From Eledone cirrhosa (lineage: Eukaryota): DNA of 64,000 bases. Of this stretch, positions 46,215 to 53,399 are shown one piece after another. The stretch spans positions 17,918,001 through 17,982,000 of the forward strand of contig OZ024766.1 in assembly GCA_964016885.1 (NCBI GenBank), written 5' to 3'. Positions within the stretch are counted from its first letter, which is position 1. Each line of letters starts with the position of its first letter. The position numbers were made by a program, and so were the translations under genes. The notes under the pieces are model-generated. The model was not told the origin of the DNA, searched no databases, and worked only from the letters and a program-made list of their open reading frames with translations.

Positions 46215-47090
46215 AGTACGAGACTGGTACTTTATTTATCGACCCCGAAAGGATGAAAGGCAAAGTAGACCTCAGCGGATGAATCGACCTCCGTACAAGG
46301 CTGGTACTTATTTTATCGACCACGAAAGGAGGAAAAGTAAAGTTGACCTCGGTGGGATTTGAACTCAGAGCAGAGAGAGTCAGGAATTGCTAGAGCGTCT
46401 GACGAGATGCCTTGCGGTATTTATTCCAGCTCTCAACATTCTGAGTTCAAATCCCGCCGAAGTCAGCTTTGCCTTTCATCCCTTCGAGGTTGATAAAAAA
46501 AGGGCACCAGTCTAATTCTGGGGTTGATTTTTCCTTTGGGTTCAACTTTGCCTTTCATCCCTTCGAGGTTAATAAAAAAAGGGCACCAGTCTAATTCTGG
46601 GGTTGATTTATTTCCTTTGGGTTTAACTTTACCTTTCATCCATTCGAGGTTAATAAAAAGGGCACCAGTCTAATTCTGGGGTTGATTTTTCCTTTGGGTT
46701 TAACTTTACCTTTCATCCATTCGAGGTTGATAAAAAGGGCACCAATCTAATTCTGGGGTTGATTTTTCCTTTGGGTTTAACTTTACCTTTCATCCCTTCG
46801 AGGTTGATAAAAAGGGCACCAATCTAATTCTGGGGTTGATTTTTCCTTTGGGTTTAACTTTACCTTTCATCCATTCGAGGTTAATAAAAAGGGCACCAGT
46901 CTAATTCTGGGGTTGATTTTTCCTTTGGGTTTAACTTTACCTTTCATCCCTTCGAGGTTGATAAAAAAGGGCACCAATCTAATTCTGGGGTTGATTTTCT
47001 TTTCCCTTTGGGTTCAAATTTACCTTTCATCCCTTCGAGGTTGATAAAACCCCAAAAAAAGGTACCATTATCGTACTGGGGTTGATGAAA
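46215..47090. mobile_element. Head-to-head tRNA-derived SINEs; the central domain of the + copy is expanded into about 8 x 77-bp tandem units
   Basis: B-box GAGTTCAAATCC at 46443; repeated cctttcatcccttcgaggttgataaaa...caccagtctaattctggggttgatt. Confidence 0.85.
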
Positions 47091-47509
47091 ACCTTGACAG
47101 TCATGTAGAAGGCATTCTGGGCACAAATTCTGTAGTGAAACGAATATGATGGCGGTTACAAGGGTTGAGATGATGAAGGGGGTGCTGATGACAATGAGAT
47201 ACTAAGCAACGAAAAAAAAAAAAGAGAAAAAGGGGGGCGAAATGGGGGACGAAGCAAGAGACTTTAAACACCAGCTTGTTCGTGCGCATGGCCATCTTTT
47301 GAGGGATAGGATAAATGTAAAGGCCGATTATGGTATGAAGGAATGGTACTGACGAGCATGAATTTTGAATGAAAATGGGAAACTGCAGAGTGAGATGGGT
47401 GTCAGTATATATATATATATATATATATATATGGGTGTATGTATGTGTATATAGATATATATATATTTAAGTGTATGTATGTGTGTATATATATATATAT
47501 ATTTAGGTG

Positions 47510-47549
<40 letters not shown>

Positions 47550-48020
47550 TGTATGTATGTATATGTATATATATATATATATAGGTGTATGTATGTGTGT
47601 ATATATATATATATAGGTGTATGTATATGTATATGTATATATGTATATGTATATATATATATGTGTATATGTATATATATGTATATATATATATGTGTAT
47701 ATGTATATATATATATATATAGGTGTATATGTATATATATATATATATATAGGTGTATATGTATATATATGTATATACATATATATGTGTGTGTGTGTGT
47801 ATATATATATATATGTACGTGTGCGTATTTATATATATGTATATATATATTTATATATGTCGTATATATATATATATATGTATATATATATTTATATATG
47901 TCGTATATATATATGTATATATATATTTATATATGTCGTATATATATATGTATATGTATATATATATTTATATATGTCGTATATGTATATGTATATATAT
48001 ATATATTTATATATGTCATA

Positions 48021-48086
<66 letters not shown>

Positions 48087-48679
48087 CAGATGCCTCAGGC
48101 TTTACTTTACGCATTTTATCACGCATGCCCAATAGCTACTTTATACATACATAGGATATCTCGTCCCTTTGTGTAGTCTTTGAGTCCTGTACGTTTTACT
48201 TTGGTTTTGCATATATATATTTGTATATATGTATATATATGTATGTATGTATATATATATGTTTGTGTATATATATGTATATGTATATATATCTGTATAG
48301 GTATGTGCATTCATAAACATATATAATATATATATTTTATGTAAGTATGTACATATGTGTGCGTGTATATATATATATATATATATACATATGTGTGTGT
48401 GTATAGATGTATATATATATATATATATATACATGTGTGTGTATATGTATAGATGTATATATATATATACATGTGTGTGTGTGTATATGTATGTGTGTGT
48501 ATATGTATGTGTATATATATATACATATATGTGTGTATATACATATATGTGTGTGTATATGTATAGATGTATATATATATATATATATATATACATGTGT
48601 GTGTATATGTATATATATATATATAATTATGTGTGTGTGTATATGTATATATGTGCATATGTGCATATGTATATATGTC

Positions 48680-48729
<50 letters not shown>

Positions 48730-48799
48730 TTTATATATATGTATGTATGTGTGTGTATGTAAGTATATGTATGTACATGCACGTTTCGATGTACAATTC

Positions 48800-48849
<50 letters not shown>

Positions 48850-49796: not shown

Positions 49797-49821
49797 AATA
49801 ATGATTTCTTTGAGAATGTAG

Positions 49822-49933
49822 TGGTGAATCAGGTGCCGGCAAAACTGAGAGTACAAAGAAGGTGATAATGTATTTTGCGGAGGTGGCCGCTACATGGGAA
49901 AAAAAACGTGAGAAACTATTCAATAACAGAGCT
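49822..49933 (+). CDS. Mhc: Myosin heavy chain alternative exon 5a (P-loop plus loop-1 start)
   Basis: aatgtag acceptor; 112 nt T+[37 protein letters not shown]; GTAAGT donor. Same length and phases (2 to 0) as 52834-52945. Confidence 0.93.
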
Positions 49934-49974
49934 GTAAGTTTGTTTTAGGGTTCCACCATCTTTCCTTATTTGTA

Positions 49975-50021
<47 letters not shown>

Positions 50022-50208
50022 GTGTATATGTGTACTTGTATATATTCATATATCATATATATACATATATATATGTATGTATAAATAAATATGTATATAA
50101 ATATGTATGTATATATATATATGTGTATAATTATGTATATATAATTGTATATACATCCATTAATATATATATATAATTATATATAATTTTATATATATAT
50201 ATATATAT

Positions 50209-50501
<293 letters not shown>

Positions 50502-50807
50502 TATATATATATATATAAAATTATATATATATATATATTATATATATATTGCCACGTTATGGGGGTTTAGTAATACAAATTGCTGGTTATTATTCGTTGT
50601 TATATTTTATCTATTCTTATTATTTTTTCTGTTTCCGTTTCCGTAGAATCACAAAATATATATTGCCGCCATGTTGTTCCATTAATTTTGCCGCCTTTTT
50701 TCCCCCAAAAAACTGCCGTTGTGTATATATATATATCTTATTTTCTTTGTCATGCTATGTTTTTTTACAGAAAAGTATTGTTTAAACCTTGTTTTTACAT
50801 GTATATG

Positions 50808-50852
<45 letters not shown>

Positions 50853-50906
50853 ATCTGTCTTTCATCTTCTCTTTTCTCATTTTTCATCTTGTATAATATA
50901 TGTATA

Positions 50907-50938
<32 letters not shown>

Positions 50939-51008
50939 GCTGTATTTACATATGTATATATGTATAAATGTATATTTATATGTATATACATATATATGTA
51001 TATATATT

Positions 51009-51040
<32 letters not shown>

Positions 51041-51050
51041 TATGTATGTG

Positions 51051-51082
<32 letters not shown>

Positions 51083-51675
51083 TATGTACATGTATGTGTA
51101 TATATATATATGTATGTGTATATGTGTATATATATATATGTATGTGTATATATGTATGTGTATATATATATATGTATGTGTATATATATATATATATATG
51201 TATGTGTATATGTATATATATATATATATGTATGTGTATATATATGTATATATATATATATGTATGTGTATATATATATATGTATATATATGTATATAGT
51301 ATTTCTCACCTCATATATAAAAAAAAAGTTTCTCACACACTGTTTCTTTCTCTTTTTCTCTTTCTCCTTCAATGAATTCCCCCCTCGTCCTATCACCTTC
51401 ATGTCCCCCCTCCTCCTCCTACACGTCAATCTGTTACAATCCTCCTTTTCCATTTAACTCGCCCCTCTCTTCCTCTAACCTCTCTCACCTCTGCTATTTG
51501 CTGTACGTGTCCTGCGCATTGTCACGTGGGGTACAACCCTCCCCCTTCAACGTATCGTTGCTTCGCTTGGTTCAACTCTCCGTTTTGTTTGTCTCCGTAT
51601 CCCCGTGTCTTCCGCTAAATCCTCCCCACCCCCCATACTGCTGTCCTTAACGATTTATTGTCCTACTAAATTTCC

Positions 51676-52790
51676 CTTCTGTCCACTTGGTACAACCCCC
51701 CCCTCCCTTTAATTTGTCACCCTTTCGTCTGTTGCTCTGTTTCTCTCTATTACACTTTTACCTTCTGTCCACTTGGTACAAAACCCCTCCCTTTAATTCG
51801 TCACCCTTCCGTCTGTTGCTCTGTTTCTCTCTATTACACTTTTACCTTCTGTCTACTTGGTACAAAACCCCTCCCTTTAATTTGTCACCCTTCCGTCTGT
51901 TGCTCTGTTTCTCTCTATTACACTTTTACCTTCTGTCCACTTGGTACAAAACCCCTCCCTTTAATTCGTCACCCTTCCGTCTGTTGCTCTGTTTCTCTCT
52001 ATTACACTTTTACCTTCTGTCCACTTGGTACAAAACCCCTCCCTTTAATTCGTCACCCTTCCGTCTGTTGCTCTGTTTCTTCTCTATTACACTTTTACCT
52101 TCTGTCCACTTGGTACAAAACCCCTCCCTTTAATTCGTCACCCTTCCGTCTGTTGCTCTGTTTCTCTCTATTACACTTTTACCTTCTGTCTACTTGGTAC
52201 AAAACCCCTCCCTTTAATTTGTCACCCTTCCGTCTGTTGCTCTGTTTCTCTCTATTACACTTTTACCTTCTGTCCACTTGGTACAAAACCCCTCCCTTTA
52301 ATTCGTCACCCTTCCGTCTGTTGCTCTGTTTCTTCTCTATTACACTTTTACCTTCTGTCCACTTGGTACAAAACCCCTCCCTTTAATTCGTCACCCTTCC
52401 GTCTGTTGCTCTGTTTCTCTCTATTACACTTTTACCTTCTGTCCACTTGGTACAAAACCCCTCCCTTTAATTTGTCACCCTTCCGTCTGTTGCTCTGTTT
52501 CTTCTCTATTACACTTTTACCTTCTGTCCACTTGGTACAAAACCCCTCCCTTTAATTCGTCACCCTTCCGTCTGTTGCTCTGTTTCTCTCTATTACACTT
52601 TTACCTTCTGTCCACTTGGTACAACCCTCCTTTTAATTCGTCAAACCCTTCCGTCCGTCGTGCAATCTCCTCCTCGCCAACAACACCTTTCTCTCCCCCG
52701 TTCACACGGTACAACCCTCCTTTTAATTCGTCAAACCCGTCCGTCCGTCGTGCAATCTCCTCCTCTCCAACAACACCTTTCTCTCGCCCC
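51676..52790 (+). repeat. 81-bp pyrimidine-rich minisatellite (about 11.5 copies) plus a duplication of about 90 bp, upstream of exon 5b
   Basis: Unit ccttctgtccacttggtacaaaacccctccctttaattcgtcacccttccgtctgttgctctgtttctctctattacactttta. Confidence 0.95.
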
Positions 52791-52833
52791 CACCGTTCGC
52801 TTTTTGTTACAATCCGCCATTTAACCCCAACAG

Positions 52834-52945
52834 TGGTGAGTCCGGTGCTGGTAAAACTGAAAACACCAAAAAAGTCATCCAGTACTTCGCTCTTGTCGCC
52901 GCTTGTCTTGATGGCAAGAAAAAGAAGGACGATGAGGAAAAGAAG
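52834..52945 (+). CDS. Mhc: Myosin heavy chain alternative exon 5b (P-loop plus loop-1 start)
   Basis: ccccaacag acceptor; 112 nt T+[37 protein letters not shown]; GTAGCG donor. Confidence 0.95.
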
Positions 52946-53399
52946 GTAGCGTTTACGGAGCAGACTATTTCCGCATGCTGGGCCTCGTGTGTGGTTTTCT
53001 CCCCCTCTTTCTTTCATCTCTCTATCTCTTTTTTTTCTTATTCTCTATCATTTCTTTCCTTTGTGTGTATTTTACAAATTAAAAGAAAAAAAACAAAAAA
53101 AAACTTTCTATATTGGGTCAAGTATGAAATTTGTAGAAACTTATAGAAAAAAATTAACAAATTTCTACAAATTTCATATTTGACGACCCGATATGACAGG
53201 AAATGAGTTGCAGCGAGCGATGCGTGTGTAAATATTTTCGTAAAATTGTAAAAAATCAAAACCGGAAACAGAAGTAGCTGTGAAATTGCCAATTTCCGTT
53301 ATAAATAGCAACAAGTCGGATTGAAATATATTGAAAAATATATTAAATATATTTTATAATACAATTAATAAAATCCTGTAGTTTACTTGAAGCATTGTA

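Follow-up and report, generated by a model that had tools for sequence, protein, structure and literature searches.

The stretch of DNA analysed here (hereafter the window) comprises 64,000 nucleotides of the Eledone cirrhosa genome (assembly GCA_964016885.1, contig OZ024766.1, positions 17,918,001 to 17,982,000 of the forward strand), and homology identified the gene it carries as a cephalopod gene for striated-muscle myosin heavy chain (Mhc). Our interest centred on exon 5b of this gene, which is preceded by a very long zone without AG dinucleotides on the sense strand. Coordinates are positions in the window and features lie on its forward strand; the gene region refers to the window plus the next 80 kb of the contig (142 kb), and exon numbers (e10, e21, e35 etc.) are our own. 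Mapping with octopus (P0002) and squid (P0003) proteins placed about 40 exons, the first coding exon being at 29850, and the exon at 42383-42539 was 100% identical to the Octopus bimaculoides myosin model and 90% identical to squid muscle myosin. Exon 4 (43596-43624, 29 nt, donor at 43625), placed by homology to the same two proteins, is followed by two tandem homologous exons, 5a (49822-49933) and 5b (52834-52945), both of 112 nt, with AG/GT ends and coding from the P-loop to loop 1. As judged from these features, exon 5b would be one of a mutually exclusive pair of P-loop/loop-1 exons (cluster 2 of the Mhc nomenclature). Joining 5b after 5a creates a stop at the second codon of 5b, and such a product would likely be removed by nonsense-mediated decay. 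The squid myosin has the 5b type and the O. bimaculoides gene model the 5a type; both types occur among the isoforms of several snail and clam genes, and a bivalve-like gene (P0122) also has both exon types.

Between the AG at 51327-51328 and the acceptor AG of exon 5b at 52832-52833, the sense strand (51329-52831, 75% pyrimidine) contained no AG in 1503 nt, as the original prediction had reported from inspection by eye. This is the longest AG-free run in the window (the next ones measure 908, 805 and 778 nt) and the longest raw run in the gene region, where the next has 1221 nt. The zone comprises a 5' unique part (51329-51670, 342 nt, 0 AG vs 5.4 expected), an AG-free minisatellite (51671-52655) and a 3' flank of 176 nt, a layout that had been foreseen, although with lengths of about 350 and 210 nt for the two flanks. 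The repeat unit, earlier taken as 81 bp in about 11.5 copies, measured 84 bp (84-86) in 11.7 copies that are 93-100% alike, a similarity indicating that the array is recent. The 3' flank contains a duplication of about 90 nt, 79% like part of the 84-bp unit; its two copies (52610-52789) are 93% alike and partly related to the minisatellite. Because about two-thirds of the zone is this young minisatellite, the figure of 1.5 kb overstates the signal, and the non-repetitive share amounts to 466-563 nt. We considered whether the 5' unique part consists of decayed copies of the unit, and no relation was detectable (P=0.27). A genome search with the unit gave 12 matches, all inside this array, a result that does not by itself prove its rarity, and no look-alike of the zone was found among the other genomes compared.

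As for the sequence itself, short-read contigs of the public runs X1 and X4 agreed letter for letter with 51374/51414-51680, a comparison that began at 51374 and leaves the branch motif and the array outside; X1 is possibly the source of the assembly and so does not count as an independent check. No joints, loose ends or other letters appeared within 51285-51680 in four runs, with 51285-51373 skipped and with two restriction-site-associated DNA (RAD) runs that had no reads there.

The absence of AG before exon 5b is real and non-random. When the array was collapsed, the zone (563 nt) had 0 AG vs 8.9 expected, and a count of 0 was not attained in any of 20,000 base shuffles, a control of the kind proposed with the original prediction; the 5' unique part alone, whose boundary was chosen after the fact, gave P=0.002. 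Windows of control DNA matched in composition (four of 342 nt and 11 half-overlapping ones of 250 nt) held 3-9 AG each and none had 0. When one unit per array was kept, the four longest sense AG-free runs in the 142 kb ended at exon 5b (466 nt) and at the alternative exons 6c (280 nt), 6b (271 nt) and 6a (265 nt), with the fifth (248 nt) adjoining the 6a zone. The antisense strand gave a maximum of 117 non-repeat nt; its CT-free runs are a lenient control, as the sense strand is pyrimidine-rich, and we relied on a two-strand control of 400 kb in 40 stretches (300 kb covering other myosin genes and 100 kb from upstream), of which 270 kb is non-repeat. In this control DNA there was no AG-free run of 200 or more non-repeat nt on either strand (maximum 196).

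The zones were also compared among the acceptors of the gene, leaving out the first coding exon and the exons past e37. Non-repeat zones were longer at seven alternative than at 33 constitutive acceptors (Mann-Whitney P=0.0005; constitutive maximum 176), and the difference held without 5b (against 31 constitutive acceptors, P=0.002). In the last 300 non-repeat nt, the introns before 5b, 6a, 6b and 6c contained 0, 1, 2 and 1 AG, compared with 7-23 in ten other introns, those of the 23 examined that have 300 non-repeat nt. GA was kept in the same interval before 6a, 6b and 6c (12, 6 and 7); at those three, therefore, it is AG in particular that has been lost. Raw length by itself does not count as evidence, since an unrelated tandem array in the control DNA has a raw AG-free run of 1768 nt and 8 of the 33 constitutive acceptors have raw runs of 200 nt or more. 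The same applies to the unit: with about 1.2 AG expected in 84 nt it would be AG-free by chance about 30% of the time, so that an AG-free unit alone is not evidence.

The acceptor of exon 5b (AG at 52832-52833) has a U-poor proximal tract, as had been noticed. The number of U in the last 20 nt was 4 for 5b, 5 for 6a, 4 for 6b and 0 for 6c, against a median of 10 in the 33 constitutive acceptors. Across acceptors, the longer the zone the fewer the U (rho -0.61, n=40; -0.51 in the 33 constitutive ones), and total pyrimidines showed no such trend in the constitutive set. The 5b acceptor has no YTNAY motif at -15 to -45, as is also the case for 16 of the 33 constitutive acceptors, and one TNAY-type site at about -25. 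The proximal tttaac that the original prediction placed 18-40 nt upstream is in fact nearer, with its A at -10.

The strong branch-like signals lie at the other end. The TTCTCAC at 51330-51336 and the pyrimidine tract after it, both pointed out previously, constitute predicted branch site 1 (A51335, -1499; 51330-51370), 8 nt after the last upstream AG; its tract (51340-51370, 29 of 30 pyrimidines) surpasses every other 30-nt window in the zone. Predicted branch site 2 (A51457, -1377) and its tract occupy 51452-51490. With a filter consisting of a branch consensus followed by a tract of at least 18 of 20 pyrimidines and at least 9 U, these two sites, both within the first 130 nt, were the only ones in the zone to pass, none being found in the array or near the acceptor, and the density of passing sites in control DNA was 0.15 per kb. 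A YTNAY followed by at least 27 of 30 pyrimidines within 25 nt of the start of the run was present in 1 of 364 control AG-free runs. The region of site 1 was predicted to be largely unpaired, and the fold of the 5' unique part (z=-2.1) was uninformative. A second copy of the branch-like heptamer occurs at 51301-51309, 27 nt upstream of the first and before the boundary AG.

The filter was applied to 13 zones. Passing sites were found before 6b (A61681/A61685, -381/-377), 6c (-298), 17b (-222 to -132), e21 (-164), e35 (-524 to -453), e36 (-52) and e37 (near -30), and were absent at 6a, e10, e30, e31 and e34. Before 5b, 6b, 6c, 17b, e21 and e35 the same layout recurs: a branch-like motif, a strong tract, an AG-free spacer (160-520 nt outside 5b) and a weak acceptor. 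In the intron of e35 the strong branch-like motifs (-515) and tract are followed by about 450 nt of AG-free CT/TATC microsatellite and then by a U-poor acceptor. The presence of these elements in front of e21 and e35 suggests that a distant design exists also at apparently constitutive exons. The introns in which a weak acceptor is preceded, at 160-520 nt, by a strong branch-like motif and its tract are located, on G000:C27, at about 18051730-18052343 (e35), 18008050-18008822 (e21) and 18001117-18001425 (17b).

Taken together, the best explanation of these data would be a distant branch point at A51335 or A51457, from which the first AG, 1.4-1.5 kb downstream, is taken; we assign this reading a probability of about 0.55. 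The spliceosome would branch at one of these adenines, beside the only strong U-rich tracts of the zone, with the exon 4 donor (43625) supplying the lariat's 5' end whenever 5b is chosen, and the first AG met downstream would be the 5b acceptor. The layout would once have measured about 0.5-0.6 kb, near the values of 6b, 6c and e35, until a local AG-free piece of 84 bp expanded to 11.7 copies between branch site and acceptor, adding about 0.9 kb. We infer that AGs were purged from the spacer because any AG there would capture the acceptor and break the motor domain. The long pyrimidine spacer might in turn serve as a platform for regulators, slow the second step and tune the choice between 5a and 5b. 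The parts of this proposal differ in strength: that the intron is designed around a distant branch point appears highly probable, and the use of the far sites at present is favoured only slightly over its absence, a lower grade because branching may have moved into the array. The kilobase-scale distant branch point of the original prediction thus gains from the repeat-collapsed null, the weak proximal tract, the restriction of strong sites to the 5' end and the like design before 6b, 6c, 17b and some constitutive exons, while use of -1499 today remains a candidate, given the young array and a weaker site in every unit. Its further proposal that repeat expansion was tolerated only because the unit lacks AG is consistent with the data without being independent evidence, since the unit is related to the AG-free flank and would be AG-free by chance in about 30% of cases.

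Several observations weigh against this reading. GA was also scarce in the collapsed zone (2 vs 8.8 expected, P=0.004), which weakens the plain shuffle test and is the reason why empirical controls were used, and it fell to 1 in three of the 11 composition-matched 250-nt windows; part of the 5b signal may therefore be composition. The zones of 5a (57 nt) and 17a (68 nt) are ordinary, and 6a has a long zone and no passing site. The thresholds of the filter were set after the sequence had been seen, and the branch motifs are a general consensus and not one measured in octopus. Moreover, 34 YTNAY motifs are spread across the 5b zone, at least one per repeat unit. Printed cases point the same way: Gooding et al. 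2006 (PMC1431707) list for human tyrosine phosphatase sigma a zone of 1126 nt, unverified, which has 229 nt in the mouse orthologue, and a repeat-caused zone of 369 nt whose only good branch site is at -17; deletion of distal branch sites had a modest effect in three minigenes that also have proximal ones (PMC5378181); and insertions can add branch competitors (PMC7969005).

The alternative that deserves most attention, although we consider it unlikely, is that the lack of AG in the 5' part is left over from selection prior to the expansion, retained because too little time has passed; the ancestral distant site would have been at about -500 to -600, and branching would now take place at one or many weaker sites within the repeat copies or the 3' flank (about -100 to -1100). 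The similarity of the units, which marks the array as recent, and the YTNAY followed by 25 of 30 pyrimidines in each of them agree with such a shift, as do the multiple branch points usual in long zones (PMC2991248), the branch competitors that inserted elements can add (PMC7969005) and the fact that verified distances in the cited papers end at about 400 nt. However, no site in the repeats or the 3' flank passes the U-rich tract filter, unlike the 5' sites and those before 6b, 6c, 17b, e21 and e35, and at e35 a strong branch-like site (-515) is separated from a U-poor acceptor by about 450 nt of microsatellite, which suggests that stretching is tolerated.

An ordinary or dual proximal branch point, with the upstream pyrimidines acting as a silencer or enhancer platform of the PTB/MBNL type or as a distal "holding" branch as in PMC5378181, and with AGs purged as cryptic acceptors stronger than the weak real one, seems to us improbable. 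It would draw on the TNAY-type site at about -25, the 75% pyrimidine content and the retention of a distal element without AG exclusion in annelid-like loci (see below); in addition, the introns of clusters 2 and 3 are poor in AG throughout, far beyond the last zone. Nevertheless, 5b has no YTNAY at -15 to -45 and a U-poor tract, 6c has no U at all in its last 20 nt, YGCY, UCUU/UUCU, YCAY and ACUAAY motifs were not enriched over dinucleotide shuffles, and upstream of the zone two strong decoys made of a tract plus AG, at 50626 and 50769, are tolerated. Chance and composition, that is, a pyrimidine-rich stretch in a microsatellite-rich genome lengthened by an AG-free array and without any meaning for splicing, would be a very improbable explanation: raw AG-free runs of 500-1768 nt are common in the repeats of this genome and GA is depleted too, but non-repeat runs of that size, which are missing from the 400 kb of control DNA, were found clustered at four alternative acceptors. 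The 5b run has its end exactly at the acceptor in use, and from its start to the best branch-plus-tract site there are 8 nt.

Distant branch points with AG exclusion are documented in human genes. The zone of PTB exon 11 measures 381 nt, with the branch at -351, that of nPTB measures 438 nt, and the branch of Tpm1 exon 3 is at -175 (PMC1431707); distances of "up to 400 nt" are given there and in PMC2991248, and eight of nine mapped human exons with long zones used distant branch points (PMC2991248). On the other hand, there is a rival scheme in which the distal branches would chiefly hold splicing back, the work being done by a proximal site (PMC5378181), and far-distal branch sites are enriched before cassette exons and seldom dominant (PMC5959240). 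Exon 5b resembles the human distant-branch exons in the AG-free sequence up to the acceptor, the 5' branch-like motif with its U-rich tract, the weak acceptor and its alternative nature; it differs in its 1503 nt vs up to 400, in being two-thirds minisatellite, in belonging to an invertebrate and in having its branch predicted from sequence alone. A kilobase AG-free zone as such is not new, the human 1126-nt case being in print; a branch distance of 1.5 kb is plausible. The literature searched held no report of AG-exclusion zones or distant branch points in molluscs or in Mhc clusters, a search that left most subscription journals and supplements outside, and the online list of Gooding et al. 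may hold longer zones.

The original prediction drew an analogy to the mutually exclusive exons of tropomyosin. The exons 5a and 5b are indeed like the OGDH and tropomyosin pairs, being duplicated exons of a muscle-relevant gene with a long pyrimidine tract and an AG-free zone before the downstream exon. In OGDH 4a/4b and alpha-tropomyosin 2/3 steric exclusion depends on a branch within about 50 nt of the upstream donor (PMC7969005), whereas the 5a donor lies 1401 nt (334 non-repeat) from site 1, and the corresponding distances for 6b, 6c and 17b are 925, 1975 and 3853 nt; a steric block of this type is excluded for 5a/5b and the analogy fails in that respect. The OGDH design also restricts intron size and keeps insertions out (PMC7969005), while the 5b zone has grown by about 900 nt of repeat. 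RNA pairing between docking site and selector serves to select exons in the Mhc, 14-3-3 and Dscam clusters of arthropods (PMC11802352), an alternative way of choosing among Mhc exon copies. We found no convincing pairing of this kind: in this one genome, ten perfect 11-mer pairs touched 49800-53000, scattered and mostly AT-rich.

The protostome muscle Mhc clusters 2 and 3 described in PMC3912159 comprise like exons (P-loop/loop-1, and loop-1 to switch-1), in tandem and of like length and phase. The accessible part of that source gives only cluster-3 variation for squid and does not discuss branch points or AG exclusion; here there are two cluster-2 and three cluster-3 copies, with two cluster-3 copies described in molluscs (PMC3912159). 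Exon 6a (60558-60665) follows an AG-free zone of 338 nt (60218-60555, 265 non-repeat) and exon 6b (62062-62154) one of 489 nt (61571-62059, 271 non-repeat). The third copy, 6c, is located about 500 nt past the end of the window, behind a zone of 390 nt (L002:4125-4514, about 125-515 nt past the window end; 280 non-repeat). Unlike the pair 5a/5b, double inclusion in cluster 3 keeps the frame. A later exon is also present in two copies (17a/17b), and the duplicated exons match clusters 2, 3 and 8 of PMC3912159, the label of cluster 8 being our own matching. Upstream of 6a, 59241-60555 contains three AGs in 1.3 kb, and branch-like motifs with a long CT tract occur at 59565-59710; the branch site of 6a may lie there, with two weak AGs bypassed.

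The orthologue comparison covered 80 metagenome loci, and in none of the 80, cephalopod or other, were two P-loop exons found. In the 29 with an intron AG before the P-loop exon, this exon was in one copy in the DNA covered and the zones had 14-120 nt (one a lower bound), several of these loci being other myosins; such short zones fit a zone tied to the duplicated exon, in a sample in which myosin classes are mixed. Two cluster-3 exons are present in four annelid-like loci (L016, L032, L036 and L075), whose identity to a Capitella model across these exons is 77-86%; in these loci a conserved block carrying branch-like motifs precedes the second exon by about 150 nt (by about 430 nt in L016). 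Between this block and the acceptor there are 1-3 AGs (many in L016), which argues that a distal element is conserved and that strict AG exclusion is not ancient, a further point against the proposed mechanism. The intron block of about 75 nt is accompanied by a repeated CTCGG-type element (L032:3080-3300, L036:11330-11535, L075:6690-6876, L016:2635-2740, with about 300 nt extra between them in L016) and is a possible regulatory or pairing element.

Other features of the region were recorded. Tandem repeats make up about 56% of the 142-kb gene region. The 5' half of the intron between 5a and 5b (49934-51328) is mostly TA-type microsatellite, with 334 non-repeat nt, and carries two strong tract-plus-AG decoy acceptors upstream of the zone (50600-50627 and 50740-50770); a microexon is conceivable there. 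TA-type arrays flank exon 5a on both sides (47406-48847, 49973-50549 and 50892-51298), and base-pairing between their transcripts (72-79% over 400-500 nt) could loop out exon 5a or the spacer, in an unspecific manner. Bringing the 5a donor near the branch site by such pairing is possible in principle and was not counted, as the pairing is unspecific; the 17,506 inverted-repeat pairs in 43400-64000 were swamped by these arrays. Likewise left uncounted was a 10-nt complement, noticed by eye, between 51327-51336 and 49909-49918 in exon 5a; such a match is to be expected by chance. Further minisatellites were located at 1596-3113, 5069-7353, 14249-14954, 24480-26606, 31112-33255 and 46467-47049. 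Exon 4 has one base beyond the frame requirement, where three C stand in a row, and this surplus base is probably a fault of the assembly. Over the 23 kb searched for it, no second hinge exon turned up. Ahead of the hinge exon is an intron of 18 kb with a 240-codon open frame rich in Ser, Pro and Gln (G000:C27, about 18024065-18024790), which we take to be a possible alternative first exon of the catchin type, catchin itself being mentioned in PMC3912159; at 2.2 kb upstream of this frame there is an AG-free run of 307 nt (212 non-repeat).

The distance over which the spliceosome, after branching, finds the 3' AG and the manner of this search are not settled. The fullest form of our proposal is tentative, and we rate it at a little under even odds: branching would occur about 1.5 kb upstream of 5b across 12 repeat copies, more than three times the longest cited verified distance, and tandem repeats without AG could expand between branch point and acceptor, the repeat length becoming a heritable dial on the loop-1 variant. 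Should branching have moved into the repeats, the locus would show cleanly how a minisatellite can provide new branch sites; if neither is the case, it would serve as a warning that repeats inflate raw AG-free length. If the proposal is true, the intron offers a natural case of 1.4-1.5 kb, in which the spacer can be counted and probably varies in length, well suited to testing scanning vs looping, and AG-free repeats can stretch the distance from branch to acceptor in repeat-rich genomes, unlike the exclusion of insertions in OGDH. Loop 1 has been linked to ADP release (PMC3912159), and if the distant branch point is confirmed, this mode of regulation would extend to molluscan muscle myosin and to a choice of loop-1 exon linked to ADP release.
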